DNA of 6,200 bases, from positions 1 through 6,200 of IMG/VR virus record IMGVR_UViG_2548876959_000020. One strand, given 5' to 3'. Below are positions 1 to 6,200 of this stretch, piece after piece. The notes under the pieces are model-generated. The model did no database searches. It saw only the letters and a program-made list of their open reading frames with translations, and was not told where the DNA came from. Position numbers and translations under genes: made by a program. The first letter of the stretch is position 1. Each line of letters starts with the position of its first letter. This DNA comes from a virus (Duplodnaviria > Heunggongvirae > Uroviricota > Caudoviricetes).

Positions 1-969
1 ATGAGTGAAGTAACAGATTTAGTTGTTATTGAAAAAGCAAATGCAATGACTGTATTTCAGCATGCCGACCAGATTGAAGAAATCCTTCAAAAGGTTGAAC
101 GTGAAGTTATGTCCTTTGTGCCTGATATCACAACGGCAAAGGGCAGAAAGGAGATCGCTTCTCTGGCGTATAAAGTTGCGCAGACGAAAACATATCTCGA
201 TGGTATTGGCAAAGACCTTGTTGCTGAACTGAAGGAAATTCCAAAGCTAATTGATGCCAACCGCAAGACAGTGCGCGATCGCCTTGATGAACTGAAAGCC
301 AAGGCGCGCCAGCCTCTTACTGATTATGAGTGGGAGCAGGCACGGATTAAAGCCGAAGAAGAAGCTAAGGCAGCAGCTGAAGCTCTCGCAAAGCAAATTG
401 AGTCTGACCATGAAATAGCGATTTTGATGGATCGCGAATTTGACCGCCAAAGAGAAGAGGCAAGACTCAAAACGGAGCAGGAAAAGCGAGAGCATGAAGA
501 ACGCTTAAAAAGAGAGGCTGAAGAGAAAGCCAGAGCTGAAGCCGAAGCAAAGGCAAAAGCCGAAATTGAAGCAGCAGCAAGGCGAGAAGCAGAAGCTAAG
601 GCCGCAGCGGAACGTGCAGAGCGTGAACGCATTGAAGCCGAGCAACGAGCACAGCGCGAAGCAAAAGAGGCAGCAGAACGAGCTGAAAGAGAAAAGCAGG
701 CAGCAATTGAAGCAGAACGCAGAAAAGCACAGGAGGAGGCTGAACGAATCCGTCGCGAGGCTGAAGCAAAAGAGCAAGCCAGAATAGCAGAAGAAAAAAG
801 AATCAAGGACGAAGAAGAGCGTAGAGCAAAGGATAAAGCTCACCGGAAAGAAGTAAATAACAAAATACTTGCTGACCTTATCAAGGTTGGTGCATCAGAA
901 GATGTTGCTAAAAATATCATAACAGCCATCGTAAAAGGCGAAGTATTCGCAACAAAAATAACCTACTAA
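1..969 (+). CDS. Hypothetical phage protein with a long E/R/K/A-rich charged helix between a globular N-terminal region and a short C-terminal region; function unknown
   Basis: 322-codon ORF, stop TAA 967-969. Residues ~115-280 are almost pure EAKA/ERAE-type repeats. The ATG sits at window position 1, so the true start could lie upstream. Confidence 0.6.
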   Translation: MSEVTDLVVIEKANAMTVFQHADQIEEILQKVEREVMSFVPDITTAKGRKEIASLAYKVAQTKTYLDGIGKDLVAELKEIPKLIDANRKTVRDRLDELKAKARQPLTDYEWEQARIKAEEEAKAAAEALAKQIESDHEIAILMDREFDRQREEARLKTEQEKREHEERLKREAEEKARAEAEAKAKAEIEAAARREAEAKAAAERAERERIEAEQRAQREAKEAAERAEREKQAAIEAERRKAQEEAERIRREAEAKEQARIAEEKRIKDEEERRAKDKAHRKEVNNKILADLIKVGASEDVAKNIITAIVKGEVFATKITY

Positions 970-993
970 TAAAACCAACATAAGGAACCACCC

Positions 994-1125
994 ATGATTT
1001 ACGCAATCGCGGGAGGCGCTCGCATGGGTGCCTTCCAACTAAATGAATCTTTACTTGAACGAATCACCCGTAAATTACGTGACGGATGGAAAAGAGTTGA
1101 GGTCTTATTATGCGCAATGAAATAG
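994..1125 (+). CDS. Small hypothetical protein (43 aa; alternative start ATG 1024 gives 33 aa)
   Basis: AAGGAA at 982-987 ahead of ATG 994. An internal GGGAGG at 1011-1016 sits 7 nt before ATG 1024. Its 3' end overlaps the next gene. Below the ORF-track length cutoff; translated by hand. Confidence 0.3.
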   Translation: MIYAIAGGARMGAFQLNESLLERITRKLRDGWKRVEVLLCAMK

Positions 1126-1262
1126 CCATCAATCACCAGATGCTTCGTGCTGCACAAAACAAAGCAGTAATAGCCAGATTTATTGGTGATTCCAAAATGT
1201 GGCTTGAAGCAAATAAAGCGATGAAATCAGCTATCAACCTTCCGTGGTATCGCAGGAAATGA
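1110..1262 (+). CDS. Small protein (50 aa), possibly a Kil-like host cell-division inhibitor
   Basis: GAGG at 1100-1103, 6 nt before ATG 1110. Translation MRNEIAINHQMLRAAQNKAVIARFIGDSKMWLEANKAMKSAINLPWYRRK. The FIGD-K-M region resembles my recollection of lambda Kil, and the gene sits just upstream of the recombination genes as kil does in lambda. Not verified. Confidence 0.4.
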   Translation: MRNEIAINHQMLRAAQNKAVIARFIGDSKMWLEANKAMKSAINLPWYRRK

Positions 1263-1429
1263 GTTTTACAGATAACTGGTCAGACGAAGAATTCATTCGT
1301 CAGATGAAAGAATTAATCGGTAACGAAGGAGATATTCATGTCACTTGCAACCACAGTGAAGGAGAGCAAGTTACAGAGACGCATGTACACGCAGCAGGCG
1401 TTAATGTATCGCCAGAAGGGAGATCGTGA
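1259..1429 (+). CDS. Small hypothetical protein (56 aa)
   Basis: ATG 1259 overlaps the upstream stop as ATGA (1259-1262). No properly spaced Shine-Dalgarno. Overlaps the better-supported ORF 1338-1508 by 92 nt in another frame, so at most one may be fully real. Confidence 0.3.
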   Translation: MSFTDNWSDEEFIRQMKELIGNEGDIHVTCNHSEGEQVTETHVHAAGVNVSPEGRS

Positions 1430-1508
1430 AGGTGTTCGCGTATTTTTAAATGCGGCAAAGACTGAAGTATTAAATCAGCGTTATTTCCTTGGGCCATGTC
1501 CATTCTGA
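1338..1508 (+). CDS. Small hypothetical protein (56 aa)
   Basis: GAAGGAG at 1325-1331, 6 nt before ATG 1338. Stop TGA 1506-1508 overlaps the RBS of the downstream SSAP gene. Translation MSLATTVKESKLQRRMYTQQALMYRQKGDREGVRVFLNAAKTEVLNQRYFLGPCPF. Not in the ORF track (below cutoff). Confidence 0.4.
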   Translation: MSLATTVKESKLQRRMYTQQALMYRQKGDREGVRVFLNAAKTEVLNQRYFLGPCPF

Positions 1509-1516
1509 GGTGAATT

Positions 1517-2224
1517 ATGGATTTGAATAAATTCGATGAGCCATTCAGCCCTGAAGATATCGAATGGCGAATACAGCAAAGCGGTAAAACACGCGATGGC
1601 AAGGTGTGGGCTATGGTGCTGGCTTATGTCACGAACCGGGCAATCATGAAACGCCTGGACGATGTTTGCGGCAAAGCAGGATGGCGCAATGAATACCGCG
1701 ATATTCCCAACAACGGCGGCGTTGAATGCGGCATATCAATCAAGATTGATTCCGAATGGGTAACCAAATGGGATGCTGCTGAAAACACGCAGGTAGAAGC
1801 CGTCAAAGGCGGTCGTTCCGGTGCAATGAAGCGCGCTGCCGTTCAGTGGGGAATCGGTCGGTATCTGTATAACCTTGAGGAAGGTTTCGCACAAACATCT
1901 CTCGATAAAAAGCAGGGGTGGCACAGGGCAAAACTGAAGGATGGAACAGGATTTTACTGGTCCCCTCCATCGCTGCCGGGATGGGCAATCCCAGCATCAG
2001 ATAACAAACCATCACCAGAAAATACCAACCAGAAATCTCCATCGGTTGACTGCGAACAAATTCTGAAAGAATTCAGCGATTATGTGTCAACAGAAACTGA
2101 CAAGAAAAAACTCATCGAGCGTTATCAGCGTGACTGGCAATTAATGGCTGGAAACGAGGAGGCGCAGGCTAAATGCGTTCAGGTAATGAACATCAGAGTT
2201 AACGAACTAAAACAGGCGGCATAA
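1517..2224 (+). CDS. Rad52/Sak-family single-strand annealing protein (phage recombinase)
   Basis: 235 aa. N-terminal region (WAMVLAYVTNRAIMKRLDDVCGKAGWRNEY ... GGRSGAMKRAAVQWGIGRYLY) matches the Rad52/Rad22 annealing-domain pattern. GAGG at 1507-1510 precedes ATG 1517. Immediately followed by an SSB gene. Confidence 0.75.
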   Translation: MDLNKFDEPFSPEDIEWRIQQSGKTRDGKVWAMVLAYVTNRAIMKRLDDVCGKAGWRNEYRDIPNNGGVECGISIKIDSEWVTKWDAAENTQVEAVKGGRSGAMKRAAVQWGIGRYLYNLEEGFAQTSLDKKQGWHRAKLKDGTGFYWSPPSLPGWAIPASDNKPSPENTNQKSPSVDCEQILKEFSDYVSTETDKKKLIERYQRDWQLMAGNEEAQAKCVQVMNIRVNELKQAA

Positions 2225-2740
2225 ATGGCAATCAGAGGCGTAAATAAGGTGATCATTATTGGTCGCCTTGGGCATGATCCAGAAATCAGATATTCACCAT
2301 CAGGAACGGCATTTGCAAACCTTACAGTTGCTACGTCAGAACAGTGGCGTGATAAGCAAACTGGAGAGCAAAAGGAGCAGACGGAGTGGCACCGTGTGGT
2401 AATGAGCGGGAAACTGGCAGAAATTGCCAGCGAATATCTGCGAAAAGGCTCTGAGGTTTATCTTGAAGGCAAATTGCGGACAAGAAAATGGCAGGATCAA
2501 AGCGGACAGGATCGGTTCACTACCGAAGTCATCGTGGGCGTTGGTGGAACCATGCAAATGCTTGGTGGCAAGCAAGGAGGCAATGAACAGTCTTCACCTC
2601 AGCGAAATAACGGTCAGCAACAAAGACAGCAATCTCAGCAGCAGGGGAATCACAGCGAACCACCTATGGATTTTGACGACGATATCCCCTTTGCACCAGT
2701 AACTCTCCCCTTCCCTCGTCACGCTATTCACGCAATTTAA
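2225..2740 (+). CDS. ssb: Single-stranded DNA-binding protein (prophage SSB) with a C-terminal extension beyond DDDIPF
   Basis: 171 aa. OB-fold region closely resembles E. coli SSB ([48 protein letters not shown]). Q-rich linker, then [11 protein letters not shown] followed by 15 more residues ([15 protein letters not shown]) before TAA. ATG 2225 abuts the upstream stop (TAAATG). Confidence 0.9.
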
Positions 2741-2753
2741 TCAGGAGAAAATC

Positions 2754-3050
2754 ATGCCAGCGCCTCTGTATGGTGCGGATGACGTGCGCCGCTGTTCCGG
2801 CAAATCCGTATCGGAGGTGCTGGATAAATTCAGAAAAAACTACGACCTGATAATGTCTCTACCGCAGGAAACGAAAGAGGAAAAGGAATTTCGCCACTGT
2901 ATATGGCTTGCAGAGAAAGAAGAACGAGAGCGAATTTACCAGACATCAATCCGACCATTCCGCAAAGCCACATATACCCACTTCCCTGAATATATCGACC
3001 CGCGCCTGCGTAATTACCGCTCACGCTATGGCGCTATCAGTAATGACTGA
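2754..3050 (+). CDS. Hypothetical phage protein (98 aa), unknown function
   Basis: AGGAG at 2742-2746 ahead of ATG 2754. Ends TGA 3048-3050. No recognisable motif. Confidence 0.55.
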
Positions 3051-3060
3051 GGAATTTACC

Positions 3061-3228
3061 ATGAGAGGACTTGCATACAATCCCGGCATTCTTCCGGCAG
3101 AAATGATTATTCGCCAACGCGTAAAGCCAATGCCATCGAGAGAGGAATTGCTTAAGAGAAATTCTTTTCCATCAGTGAATCAAAACAAATATCTGAATGC
3201 GATGTGGCGCAAAGGAGGCAACCAGTGA
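3061..3228 (+). CDS. Small hypothetical phage protein (55 aa)
   Basis: GAGGA at 3049-3053, 7 nt before ATG 3061. This is the in-frame 3' part of ORF-track entry 2908..3228, whose longer version would overlap the previous gene by 143 nt. Stop TGA 3226-3228 overlaps the next gene's GTG start. Confidence 0.45.
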
Positions 3229-3815
3229 GCGAAATTAACTATCAGGCACTGCGCGAGGCGGCAGAGAAAGCGACGTGGGGAGACTGGGACTCATATAAAC
3301 CACACCGTGGCGCACGTGGTTATGAGGTCCGACTAAGTAGTCAGGCCATTGCGCAACACGTTCTGAAAAACAACGCTGAATTTATTGCTGCCTTTAATCC
3401 AAAGGTTGCTTTGGCACTACTGGATGAACGGGAAAGAAACCGGCAATACATCAAACGCCGCGACCAGGAGAACGAGGATATTGCGCTAACGGTAGGGAAG
3501 CTGCGTGTTGAGCGGGAGGCAGCAAAAAAACGCATAGCAGAACTGGAAGCCGAACTCGTAAGCCAAACTTACAAGTTGAACGAGCTATCGGGCAACTCTC
3601 CGGTAACTCCGGATGGTTGGATAAGCTGTAGTGAGCGAATGCCGGATACCAAAACAGCCGTTCTTGTTGCCAGGGAGTTTGACAGGAAAGGTGACTGGCG
3701 AATGAAATGGGCGACTTACATCCCGGGTCATCCTGACGCTAATGATGGGTGGATAATTCCTGGTGCGTCGTGGAAACCGTCACACTGGATGCCGCTACCA
3801 GAGCCTCCACTTTGA
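3225..3815 (+). CDS. Ead/Ea22-like N-terminal domain fused to a DUF551 C-terminal domain (phage early protein)
   Basis: AGGAGG at 3213-3218, 6 nt before GTG 3225 (the ORF track uses GTG 3204). N-terminus shows Ead/Ea22-like motifs ([32 protein letters not shown]) followed by a coiled coil. C-terminus ([11 protein letters not shown]...WMPLPEPP) looks like DUF551. Confidence 0.7.
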
Positions 3816-3911
3816 AAGCGAAGCTTATACATATCTTTTACATCAGCAATCTATTGTTAATCTCCAATCAATGTTACGTTGTCATCTCACTCATGCTTTG
3901 GAGGTAGTGAT

Positions 3912-4091
3912 ATGTCTTGTCCAAAATGCGGTTCTGGAAATATTGCAAAAGAAAAAACAATGCGTGGATGGTCTGGTGATTATGTGTGCTGCGATTGCGG
4001 ATACAACGACTCTAAAGACGCATTTGGAGAGCGTGGTAAAAACGAGTTTGTTAAAATTAATAAAGAACGCGAAGGCAACGAAAAAAGCTAA
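3912..4091 (+). CDS. Small zinc-ribbon protein (59 aa; CPKC ... CCDC)
   Basis: GGAGG just upstream of ATG 3912. Two Cys pairs (C-P-K-C and C-C-D-C) 19 residues apart, Lys/Glu-rich tail. The ORF track's ATG 3879 start would place the RBS inside the gene. Confidence 0.55.
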   Translation: MSCPKCGSGNIAKEKTMRGWSGDYVCCDCGYNDSKDAFGERGKNEFVKINKEREGNEKS

Positions 4092-4156
4092 TTTATTTAT
4101 TCATATATGAAAACAATGTAACCAATATTCGAATTGAAGAACTGAAAGAACACCAA

Positions 4157-4180
4157 GCCGCCTGATGGCGGTTTTTTATT
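4157..4180 (+). terminator. Putative Rho-independent terminator after the zinc-ribbon gene
   Basis: GC-rich hairpin GCCGCC-TGAT-GGCGG followed by TTTTTTATT, 66 nt downstream of the stop at 4091. Confidence 0.5.
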
Positions 4181-4187
4181 GCCTGAT

Positions 4188-4203
4188 TTGCAGGTTCGAT
4201 TCC
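4188..4203 (+). other. tRNA-Arg (argW) T-arm fragment: 16-nt identity to the tRNA 5' T-stem and T-loop
   Basis: TTGCAGGTTCGATTCC matches the argW segment immediately preceding the att core as I recall it; the T-stem 3' strand is not completed (CCcta instead of CCTGC). Confidence 0.45.
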
Positions 4204-4222
4204 CTATTCGGAGATAGCACTC

Positions 4223-4423
4223 ATGCAACACGAACTACAGCCTGATTCACTGGTTGATTTGAAATTCATCATGGCTGATACTGGCTTCGGTAAGACCTTC
4301 ATCTATGACCGGATTAAGTCCGGCGACCTGCCAAAAGCCAAAGTTATCCACGGTCGAGCAAGATGGTTATATCGCGACCATTGTGAATTCAAAAATAAGC
4401 TCTTAAGCCGCGCCAATGGGTAA
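4223..4423 (+). CDS. torI: TorI-type excisionase / recombination directionality factor (AlpA/Xis family winged helix)
   Basis: 66 aa, MQHELQPDSLVDLKFIMADTGFGKTFIYDRIKSGDLPKAKVIHGRARWLYRDHCEF..., which I recognise as E. coli TorI (the KplE1 excisionase). GGAG is 9 nt before the ATG. Lies immediately before the att core. Confidence 0.8.
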   Translation: MQHELQPDSLVDLKFIMADTGFGKTFIYDRIKSGDLPKAKVIHGRARWLYRDHCEFKNKLLSRANG

Positions 4424-4496
4424 AATAGCGGGTAAAATATTTCTCACATCTAAAAAACACCATTCCAATCAATCCCCTGCCGCTTCAAGTAGATGT

Positions 4497-4511
4497 CTGC
4501 AGGGGACACCA
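4497..4511 (+). other. attR core: copy of the 3' end of tRNA-Arg (argW), CTGCAGGGGACACCA
   Basis: 15-nt identity to the T-stem 3' strand, acceptor 3' strand and CCA end of argW. No upstream tRNA body is present, so this is an attachment-site repeat, not a tRNA gene. Confidence 0.7.
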
Positions 4512-4952
4512 GATACCCTTCAAACGAAATCTACCTTCACCCCGTAAAAGATGGGTTTGGCAGCACACTTGCCTTATATCTACTCATTTTTACTGCAACA
4601 GGTTGAAATCTCAGCACTGTCAGAAAGCGCTGATGACTAAACAGCCCTGGGCCGGGCGATGTAACCATCACACAGAATCCTGATAGCGAAATATGGCGTG
4701 ACTCGATACTTCACTCCGCAATGCATTCCTTGATGAATTCGCAGGACCGTGATACACGGGACAGGTCACTGAATGACGACAATGTCCTGGAAATCAGCGA
4801 ACCGCGCATCTGAAGTACATTTGAGCGACTGTACCAGAACATGAATGAGGCGTTTGGATTAGGCGATTATTAGCAGGGCTAAGCATTTTACTATTATTAT
4901 TTTCCGGTTGAGGGATATAGAGCTATCGACAACAACCGGAAAAAGTTTACGT

Positions 4953-6200
4953 CTATATTGCTGAAGGTACAGGCGTTTCCATAACTATTTGCTCGCGTTT
5001 TTTACTCAAGAAGAAAATGCCAAATAGCAACATCAGGCAGACAATACCCGAAATTGCGAAGAAAACTGTCTGGTAGCCTGCGTGGTCAAAGAGTATCCCA
5101 GTCGGCGTTGAAAGCAGCACAATCCCAAGCGAACTGGCAATTTGAAAACCAATCAGAAAGATCGTCGACGACAGGCGCTTATCAAAGTTTGCCACGCTGT
5201 ATTTGAAGACGGATATGACACAAAGTGGAACCTCAATGGCATGTAACAACTTCACTAATGAAATAATCCAGGGGTTAACGAACAGCGCGCAGGAAAGGAT
5301 ACGCAACGCCATAATCACAACTCCGATAAGTAATGCATTTTTTGGCCCTACCCGATTCACAAAGAAAGGAATAATCGCCATGCACAGCGCTTCGAGTACC
5401 ACCTGGAATGAGTTGAGATAACCATACAGGCGCGTTCCTACATCGTGTGATTCGAATAAACCTGCATAAAAGACAGGAAAAAGTTGTTGATCAAAAATGT
5501 TATAGAAAGACCACGTCCCCACAATAAATATGACGAAAACCCAGAAGTTTCGATCCTTGAAAACTGCGATAAAATCCTCTTTTTTTACCCCTCCCGCATC
5601 TGCCGCTACGCACTGGTGATCCTTATCTTTAAAACGCATGTTGATCATCATAAATACAGCGCCAAATAGCGAGACCAACCAGAAGTTGATATGGGGACTG
5701 ATACTAAAAAATATGCCGGCAAAGAACGCGCCAATAGCATAGCCAAAAGATCCCCAGGCGCGCGCTGTTCCATATTCGAAATGAAAATTTCGCGCCATTT
5801 TTTCGGTGAAGCTATCAAGCAAACCGCATCCCGCCAGATACCCCAAGCCAAAAAATAGCGCCCCCAGAATTAGACCTACAGAAAAATTGCTTTGCAGTAA
5901 CGGTTCATAAACGTAAATCATAAACGGTCCGGTCAAGACCAGGATGAAACTCATACACCAGATGAGCGGTTTCTTCAGACCGAGTTTATCCTGAACGATG
6001 CCGTAGAACATCATAAATAGAATGCTGGTAAACTGGTTGACCGAATAAAGTGTACCTAATTCCGTCCCTGTCAACCCTAGATGTCCTTTCAGCCAAATAG
6101 CGTATAACGACCACCACAGCGACCAGGAAATAAAAAAGAGAAATGAGTAACTGGATGCAAAACGATAGTACGCATTTCTGAATGGAATATTCAGTGCCAT
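4953..6200 (-). CDS. cscB: Sucrose:H+ symporter CscB (LacY-family oligosaccharide permease, MFS)
   Basis: 415-aa hydrophobic ORF. N-terminus MALNIPFRNAYYRFASSYSFLFFISWSLWW and overall pattern are LacY-like; I recognise it as E. coli CscB. Start codon is the last three bases of the window. Confidence 0.88.
   Translation of the reverse strand: MALNIPFRNAYYRFASSYSFLFFISWSLWWSLYAIWLKGHLGLTGTELGTLYSVNQFTSILFMMFYGIVQDKLGLKKPLIWCMSFILVLTGPFMIYVYEPLLQSNFSVGLILGALFFGLGYLAGCGLLDSFTEKMARNFHFEYGTARAWGSFGYAIGAFFAGIFFSISPHINFWLVSLFGAVFMMINMRFKDKDHQCVAADAGGVKKEDFIAVFKDRNFWVFVIFIVGTWSFYNIFDQQLFPVFYAGLFESHDVGTRLYGYLNSFQVVLEALCMAIIPFFVNRVGPKNALLIGVVIMALRILSCALFVNPWIISLVKLLHAIEVPLCVISVFKYSVANFDKRLSSTIFLIGFQIASSLGIVLLSTPTGILFDHAGYQTVFFAISGIVCLMLLFGIFFLSKKREQIVMETPVPSAI

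Follow-up and report, generated by a model that had tools for sequence, protein, structure and literature searches.

How did the 3' part of a tRNA gene come to lie in two pieces on either side of an excisionase gene? The question is raised by a 6,200-nucleotide (nt) stretch of DNA from a virus of the Caudoviricetes (IMG/VR record IMGVR_UViG_2548876959_000020, positions 1 to 6,200), which is referred to at its full length as the window. Two strings on its plus strand, TTGCAGGTTCGATTCC at 4188-4203 and CTGCAGGGGACACCA at 4497-4511, match the tRNA-Arg gene argW; they are 293 nt apart, with torI, the gene for a recombination directionality factor (RDF, or excisionase), in between (Table 1). We found that the two strings are of different kinds. 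The downstream 15-mer is the known core of the right attachment site (attR) left by IntS-mediated integration. The upstream 16-mer belongs to a conserved box in the torI leader, which we read from its sequence, with about even confidence, as a cis-regulatory element that originated from the T-arm of argW or mimics it.

Both matches are exact. In a BLAST comparison of argW with the window, argW nt 46-61 correspond to 4188-4203 at 16 of 16 positions (E 6e-4) and nt 61-75 to 4497-4511 at 15 of 15 (E 2e-3), all remaining matches being at most 8 nt long or at chance level. Neither string recurs in the window with up to two mismatches, and in shuffled windows the mean number of matches was 0.01 for the 16-mer and 0.00 for the 15-mer. 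The annotated argW of Escherichia coli K-12 reads ...GGGCTAATTGCAGGTTCGATTCCTGCAGGGGACACCA and ends ...CTAATTGCAGGTTCGATTCCTGCAGGGGACACCA; the two pieces share one C (nt 61) and yield argW nt 46-75 when joined. The initial annotation had reported both tRNA-Arg fragments, considered a chance match unlikely and taken the 16-mer to be related to the tRNA, and on all three counts the alignments agree with it. No tRNA gene was detected in the window by ARAGORN, and no tRNA match was returned for 3800-4900 by Rfam, even at E<=10. A tRNA gene or pseudogene was rejected on these negatives and on the inability of the CTATT that follows the box to form a T-stem. A T-arm mimic acting as RNA, for example as the substrate of a T-loop-modifying enzyme, was likewise rejected; a stem of 4-5 bp can form only in Serratia, Edwardsiella and Pantoea stewartii and is absent from E. 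coli and the Erwinia phages.

For the downstream piece, the core published for prophage KplE1 is CTGCAGGGGACACCAT (PMC2951348). Homology of the window to the phage records HK620 and Sf6 ends at 4511, and a synthetic 'empty site', made of argW and window 4512-4688, is matched at 100% identity and full length in many E. coli chromosomes and with at least 80% coverage in 1472 genomes. Therefore, 4511 is the last position of the prophage, and native argW-downstream DNA follows from 4512. What the window shows is the right end of a P22-like prophage of the HK620/Sf6/KplE1 type, with argW as its integration site. As in the window, KplE1 (CPS-53) of K-12, HK620 and Sf6 have the core, the P arm and an identical TorI protein reading toward the core (PMC2951348, PMC3509656). 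The upstream 16-mer is also carried by K-12, HK620 and Sf6. In K-12 the bacterial flank of KplE1 is dsdC, whereas in the window it is the csc sucrose locus, and because of this difference the identity with argW covers 15 nt in the window (ACCA, then G) and 16 nt in K-12. The proposal that both fragments are attachment-related thus holds for the 15-mer, which is an att remnant, and both strings are argW-related, but they are not two halves of one split tRNA. It is a general phenomenon that prophages and islands integrated in tRNA genes are bordered by duplicated tRNA 3' segments. The 15-mer is exactly such a direct repeat of the tRNA 3' end. The 16-mer, in contrast, is internal to the element, with ~290 bp separating it from the junction; it spans tRNA sequence 5' of the core that is not required by the phage to restore the gene, and it is repeated at the other prophage end only as the tRNA gene itself.

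The 16-mer is found in the free-phage records HK620 and Sf6 at the same distance from the excisionase ATG as in the window. It has this distance in KplE1 of K-12 as well, where the DNA farther upstream differs, and it is placed alike in 75 of 80 sampled IMG/VR contigs with a protein-identical TorI, in which two types of terminator stand in front of it. Therefore, it was made neither by the integration seen here nor by tandem integration in this strain. These occurrences lend no support to the earlier suggestion that the split is the footprint of tandem or sequential integrations at one tRNA, and the companion suggestion, that the excisionase module was inserted into a tRNA-homologous att region, gained no positive support from a 16-mer that is phage-borne and shared across genera. 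No attP or attR with a contiguous T-arm and core was found among the contiguous matches listed, of which 120 of 120 in IMG/VR were intact argW genes at prophage left ends; on this point the split described initially stands. A junction fusing argW to torI, of the kind expected from recombination between the 16-nt repeats, occurred in 0 of 5426 complete E. coli genomes, and a deletion between argW and the 16-mer that leaves an orphan torI was accordingly dismissed.

In a scan of one genome per species, the exact string GTTCGATT lies upstream of TorI homologues and within ~45 nt of their ATG, the ATG-proximal copy being at most 35 nt away, in Escherichia, Enterobacter, Serratia, Citrobacter, Pantoea and Edwardsiella, and in Pantoea stewartii; the probability of this by chance is ~8e-4 per locus. 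The fragment upstream of torI is thus retained in relatives, both in the 75 contigs and in other genera. Because the box stands before TorI homologues in other genera, it is older than the integration seen here and moves with the phage, and we regard it as nearly certain that the 16-mer is phage-borne and predates this integration. With a lineage defined as coding DNA less than 95% identical to that of the others, the box is present in 19 of the 32 lineages obtained from the species scan and IMG/VR, and the coding DNA of the box-bearing lineages is 70-83% identical to that of the window. At positions free of alignment anchoring, C occupies +9 in 19 of 19 lineages, and C, A and G occupy -3 to -1 in 79-84%. 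The mean major-allele frequency is 0.77 at third positions of invariant codons and 0.4-0.6 in the outer flanks, and the bases between the box and the Shine-Dalgarno sequence (SD) vary freely between lineages.

The box has also been duplicated. In Erwinia-type phages (Midgardsormr38, L006 1985-2015; L115, L117 and L118) CAGGTTCGATTCCCGT occurs twice in tandem with a period of 16 nt, and in L122 GTTCGATTCCCGC and GTTCGATTACC follow each other with a period of 13 nt; these are at least two independent events. All modules with the conserved box target an argW-type 3' end. The extent of the likeness to argW depends on the lineage: E. coli matches over 16 nt, Serratia has CAGGTTCGATTCCTG (argW 49-63) and one Pantoea has argW 52-63. 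The TT at argW 46-47 is kept in most lineages. Judged from these alignments, the tRNA-likeness of the box exceeds what the TorI-binding pentamer within it (see below) would account for alone, and an ancient derivation of the 16-mer from argW or attB appears likely. In the lineages that have no box, the DNA upstream of the TorI homologue is unrelated; at most a weak partial resemblance was noted (L020, L028), and no systematic examination was made. One of these, from Proteus hauseri (L028, 2492-4067), has its TorI homologue, with no box upstream, tail-to-tail with an integrase gene that adjoins an intact tRNA-Arg(CCU), and its attP is not between xis and int. Two contigs with a TorI module, labelled as metagenome-assembled genomes of an 'Actinomycetes bacterium' (L014) and a 'Parachlamydiaceae bacterium' (L031), have Citrobacter-type or enterobacterial-type sequence and are probably mis-binned.

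If the sequence came from argW, it could still be a functionless fossil. An ancestral attP or attR may have held a contiguous argW 3' segment into which a block of torI and P arm was inserted, or to which the block was joined through illegitimate recombination of tandem argW prophages. Such a history would explain why the two pieces are directly adjacent in argW (nt 46-61 and 61-75) and why the box stands at a mosaic junction, directly after the shared t'I terminator segment; in the Erwinia-type leader the 14 nt past TTCC match argW at 7 of 14 ungapped positions, a weak resemblance counted by eye, and no other origin has been demonstrated. However, the cross-genus conservation, well above that of the adjacent non-coding bases, argues against a neutral scar, as would the two duplications, and no clearly decayed copy was noted among the lineages. 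Nor does a fossil agree with the lack of contiguous homology in relatives or of argW::torI deletion junctions, as counted above, and no route is known for the precise insertion into the core of a 293-bp block with an RDF gene and arm sites. We therefore consider a neutral fossil quite unlikely. The wider proposal that homology of the leader extends over the entire 3' end of argW, whose GGGG would have given rise to the SD, was set aside, the 7 of 14 ungapped matches in the Erwinia type only being too weak to claim.

What the box might regulate depends on how torI is transcribed. Starting with the final two bases of the eaG-like gene, the segment 4090-4181 is 100% identical to the end of P22 eaG and the P22 t'I terminator. 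The P22 record annotates t'I as 'identical to lambda 29106-29165', and in lambda the identical terminator is directly upstream of xis. Since the terminator is the t'I element that normally precedes xis, torI is by this analogy the last gene of the leftward early (PL) operon and would be expressed by antiterminated read-through, not as an autonomous unit. PtorI has been described as 'non-characterized' (PMC2951348), and no sigma-70-like promoter is predicted between the terminator and torI, both of which are consistent with read-through expression. The terminator that the initial annotation placed at 4157-4180 agrees with the hairpin and T-run at 4155-4177, but its conclusion that torI is autonomous is not sustained by the lambda order or the promoter prediction. 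A sigma-54 match and a match to the TorR 'tor box' (CTGTTCATAT, 5/10) before torI were dismissed on a by-eye check. The homology to P22 and lambda, of which the lambda identity covers the 3' part of 4090-4181, stops at the T-run where the torI leader starts, forming a sharp mosaic boundary. Related prophages have a different second terminator (CGCCGCATCAATGCGG) before the same torI leader.

A promoter has nevertheless been annotated here. The HK620 record designates the equivalent of 4178-4216 a 'phage integration' promoter, and the Sf6 record takes the annotation over by homology. By analogy with lambda, this would be a cII-activated pI promoter for expression of int without xis during lysogenisation, and the 16-mer would be its second cII half-site with the promoter spacer. 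Besides the annotated features themselves, there is the lambda pI cII box TTGCGTGTAATTGC at the homologous place, directly after t'I, and a -10-like TATTCG 13 nt past the second TTGC, the same spacing as in the HK620 paQ-like box. The sequence at 4179-4191 departs from the lambda type (TTGC-N6-TTGC around a weak -35 element, with a -10 element ~13 nt downstream) in that its spacer is N5, unlike the N6 of HK620's own pRE and paQ-like boxes, and the candidate -10 lacks the final T. Moreover, K-12 and 18 of 80 related contigs have TTAC as the first half-site. Where the box persists outside the E. coli lineage, it lacks the second TTGC, and the TTGC pair is not conserved in other genera. A promoter spacer is not expected to be the most conserved part, and a promoter of intS itself has been mapped to the P' arm (PMC2951348). 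Resting as it does on analogy, the HK620 annotation of a pI promoter and cII site is unlikely to be correct, and we hold it to be highly improbable that this promoter explains the 16-mer. Lambda shares with the window the terminator segment, the gene order PL operon, t'I, xis and the TTGC repeats directly after the T-run, but its cII box, TTGC-N6-TTGC, overlaps the start of xis, whereas in the window the second TTGC, at N5 spacing, is followed by a 31-nt leader with the tRNA-like box, and in window-type modules attP lies between xis and int. In Arsenophonus nasoniae (L024, ~2450-2490), a box-less TorI homologue is preceded by TTGCGTGTAATTG, a nearly exact copy of the lambda pI cII box; the presence of this lambda-like box before xis in a relative counts in favor of a pI promoter, and some relatives of the TorI module may have a genuine lambda-type pI.

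For the cis-regulatory box that we favor, the most likely candidate ligand is TorI itself. RDFs usually bind tandem direct repeats, and the tandem duplications of the box give it a layout typical of protein-binding repeats. Five TorI sites in attL (I1-I5) were defined by the pentamers GTTCG, GATCG and GTCCG and mutated to CAAGC, and TorI represses PintS through its attL sites (PMC2951348). GTTCG is invariant in the P'-arm TorI sites of six lineages, L119 and L123 carry TCAGTTCG, identical to the 8-mer of site I1, and in 5 of 19 lineages a second pentamer, GTTCG or GTCCG, abuts the SD. A 135-bp attR whose upstream limit falls within the 3' end of torI supports excision in vitro (PMC3509656). 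The box is thus dispensable for the recombination chemistry, and regulation is therefore its likely role.

From the identity, phage-borne location, conservation and duplications of the box and its match to the published TorI pentamer, all of which are observed, we infer binding and a regulatory effect along the following lines. Copying or mimicking the left arm of attB, namely the T-arm side of argW, the box would set the amount of excisionase made from PL read-through transcripts. TorI would bind GTTCG (4194-4198) together with the degenerate repeat at 4206-4210, exerting feedback at the DNA level, and in the RNA the SD may also be masked by the pyrimidine 3' half of the box (UUCCC). We put TorI binding forward as the main mode of action only tentatively. 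The leader box shares with I1-I5 the GTTCG pentamer, often after CAG or GG; I1-I5 are direct repeats, an arrangement that the box may have with its degenerate second pentamer. In contrast, I1-I5 lie in the P' arm by intS, are phased every 10 or 20 nt and continue with C or T (PMC2951348), whereas the candidate site in the leader is upstream of torI and continues with ATTYCC.

Several observations weigh against this reading. Every leader box continues after its pentamer with A, whereas C or T follows in 30 of 30 aligned P'-arm sites (six lineages with five sites each). The 10-nt phasing of I3-I5 is matched neither by the distance to the second pentamer, which is 10-13 nt, nor by the periods of 13 and 16 nt at which the box is duplicated, and the second pentamer of the window is imperfect (ATTCG). 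A DNA-bound repressor past the terminator, with no promoter nearby, would be an unusual means of controlling a read-through gene. The box occurs as a single copy in the HK620 genome (<=2 mismatches) and likewise in the window, and a multi-site operator with further box copies elsewhere was rejected on these counts. Anchoring of the alignment on the central 8 nt accounts for part of their invariance, an ascertainment effect. Lastly, ~40% of lineages with a TorI homologue have no box, so it is not essential to the module.

Occlusion of the SD could also be the entire function. In that case, the box would be the 5' strand of a hairpin in the torI mRNA leader that keeps excisionase translation low on read-through transcripts, with GGUU pairing to the AACC just before the AUG and AUUYCC to the SD region GGAGAU, and its tRNA-likeness would be incidental or ancestral. 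In single-sequence folds, the SD pairs with the box in 18 of 18 lineages. GGAG is predicted to be paired with a probability of 0.6-0.96 in the window; for most relatives the value is 0.7-1.0, although one of the four bases falls to 0.14-0.43 in four lineages. In the two-tier majority register, 84% of cells pair, compared with 31-62% when the partner is slid by 1-3 columns. Leaders of the Citrobacter type reach -10 to -11 kcal/mol (z -2.6 to -3.5), and C-to-U changes at box positions +8 and +10 maintain or better the pairing. On the other side, the best structure of the window has only -3.6 kcal/mol (z +0.6) and is in a different register, RNAalifold gave no consensus structure, and covariation was no better than in shuffles. 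The tRNA-like C at +8 creates a C·A mismatch in 7 of 18 lineages, and pairing leaves both the invariant CG of the predicted internal loop and the tandem duplications unexplained. Translational control as the sole function of the box is, in our estimate, rather unlikely. In the E. coli lineage only, the GGTTCG of the box (4194-4199) is complementary to CGAAC in torI codons 3-5 (4231-4235), and the minimum-free-energy fold of 4185-4240 takes this pairing instead of the SD hairpin.

The integrase is another potential ligand. The two direct GGGTAAAAT repeats at the end of torI are invariant in every lineage aligned, and the P' arm next to intS holds inverted copies (TTTACCC) and direct near-copies (GGGTAAAAA, GGATAAAAT) of them; P' arm-type sites have TAAA in common (PMC2951348). 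We infer that the repeats are the P-arm arm-type sites of IntS. The box, which copies the left (B) arm of attB (GTTCGATTCC, directly 5' of the core), might then be a decoy half-site for the core-binding domain of IntS, and from the arm-type sites at 4418-4438, bound IntS could in this way loop out torI and repress it, or contribute to assembly of the attR complex. In keeping with this, the box consists of the argW bases directly before the core in attB, the attP C arm retains TTCGAT in most lineages (..TTCGATGTATGCAGG), the arm-type repeats are ~215 bp downstream of the box, and repression of transcription by att-bound IntS has been described (PMC2951348). Yet the attP C arm (GTAGAT, TTAGAT, TTAGGT) is far more variable than the box, and core-type sites normally form inverted pairs around the overlap region, an arrangement absent here. 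Tandem direct duplications suit an RDF better, and the box is unneeded for excision in vitro (PMC3509656). An IntS decoy is therefore very unlikely in our view. A combined scheme, in which the box is a functional mimic of the attB left arm (the argW T-arm) placed in the excisionase leader, so that TorI and/or IntS, the phage proteins that read tRNA-side DNA in recombination, would also meter RDF synthesis (a 'target-site mimic' operator), is conceivable from the alignments but unlikely.

The features of the locus are collected in Table 1.

Table 1. Features of the window discussed in the text, in order of position
Feature	Position	Strand	Basis or remark
eaG-like gene	3912-4091	+	Last PL-operon gene before the terminator; RefSeq 'Eag protein' in best-matching genome
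Intrinsic terminator, lambda/P22 t'I type	4155-4177	+	Hairpin GCCGCCTGATGGCGG and T-run; terminator scan
TTGCctgatTTGC	4179-4191	+	cII-binding site of putative pI in the HK620 record; second TTGC is the first 4 nt of the 16-mer
16-mer, argW nt 46-61	4188-4203	+	End of variable loop, 5' T-stem strand, T-loop and first 2 nt of 3' T-stem strand
Conserved leader box CAGGTTCGATTCCC	4191-4204	+	Consensus TTnCAGGTTCGATTYCC; ~30 nt before excisionase ATG
GTTCG pentamer	4194-4198	+	Core of experimentally defined TorI sites
Second, imperfect pentamer ATTCG	4206-4210	+	4/5 match, 12 nt downstream of the first
torI Shine-Dalgarno GGAG	4210-4213	+	Can pair with the box
torI, recombination directionality factor (excisionase)	4223-4423	+	PDB 1Z4H match, RefSeq annotation
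Two direct GGGTAAAAT repeats	4418-4426 and 4430-4438	+	Overlap torI stop codon; putative IntS arm-type sites, P arm
Inverted repeat TCCCCTGC / GCAGGGGA	4473-4480 / 4499-4506		8 bp; brackets the P arm-core junction
attR core, last 15 nt of argW	4497-4511	+	K-12 pseudogene pawZ; 15/15 nt with argW 61-75
Bacterial DNA native downstream of argW in csc+ E. coli	4512-6200		Empty-site matches; includes cscB
cscB, oligosaccharide MFS (major facilitator superfamily) transporter	4953-6200	-	Database matches and RefSeq annotation

The protein encoded by torI matches PDB 1Z4H, 'Tor inhibition protein', over its full length (all 66 residues, E 7e-43), and is 100% identical to TorI from E. coli loci that include the K-12 type (KplE1-like). 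The P-arm region with torI and the GGGTAAAAT repeats (4223-4438), upstream of the attR core, has 97-99% identity with HK620 and Sf6. A matching attL end, expected with intact argW and intS outside the window, is seen on related contigs; one IMG/VR contig carries argW with the P' arm (L149) as well as torI (L036). The columns of the TCCCCTGC/GCAGGGGA inverted repeat are invariant across 7 aligned lineages, and its second arm lies within the att core; the repeat (4473-4506) may represent paired core-type sites for Int or, in the torI transcript, a 3'-terminal RNA hairpin. At 4416-4547, a 43-aa open reading frame with homology to hkaB of HK620 and gene 17 of Sf6 overlaps the torI stop and crosses the att core; its 3' end in the prophage is bacterial DNA, which makes it chimeric, and it has no Pfam match.

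The best matches to the window are E. coli chromosomes with a P22-like prophage beside the csc sucrose genes. In the equivalent region of strain L65, RefSeq annotates, in order, cIII, kil, Rad52/Erf, ssb, anti-RecBCD, several ea genes, Eag, torI and, on the opposite strand, cscB, an oligosaccharide MFS transporter. The window therefore represents the distal PL operon with torI, the right attachment site and bacterial DNA. Compared with KplE1, its module sits in an apparently fuller P22-like prophage, of which the window spans only the PL operon from cIII to eaG. The eaG-like gene has weak matches to Lar-type zinc ribbons, under the Pfam cut-off. Between the att core and cscB there are ~440 bp of non-coding DNA (4512-4952), found directly 3' of argW in prophage-free csc+ strains; they contain a terminator-like hairpin at 4559-4573 and, at 4870-4897, the sole sigma-70-like match of the region.

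The attR core, torI, the P arm and the terminator were already known. The upstream tRNA-like box is unmentioned in the literature surveyed, which included PMC2951348 and PMC3509656, and yet it is present in the well-studied sequences of K-12, HK620 and Sf6. As a type it would fall among known kinds, either as an RDF operator or leader element or as a tRNA-derived sequence in an integration module. For annotation, it illustrates that neither an att site nor an earlier integration has to lie behind a short exact tRNA match within a prophage, and our analysis would correct the by-analogy 'pI / cII site' annotation that spread from the HK620 record to Sf6. In the surveyed literature, excision control in KplE1/HK620-type prophages depends on the amount of TorI, and the torI promoter and leader are uncharacterised; a conserved leader box with a TorI-type recognition core provides a concrete, mutable target on which RDF feedback control could be tested. 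If the 'target-site mimic' operator is real, it might be general to tRNA-targeting modules with attP between xis and int.

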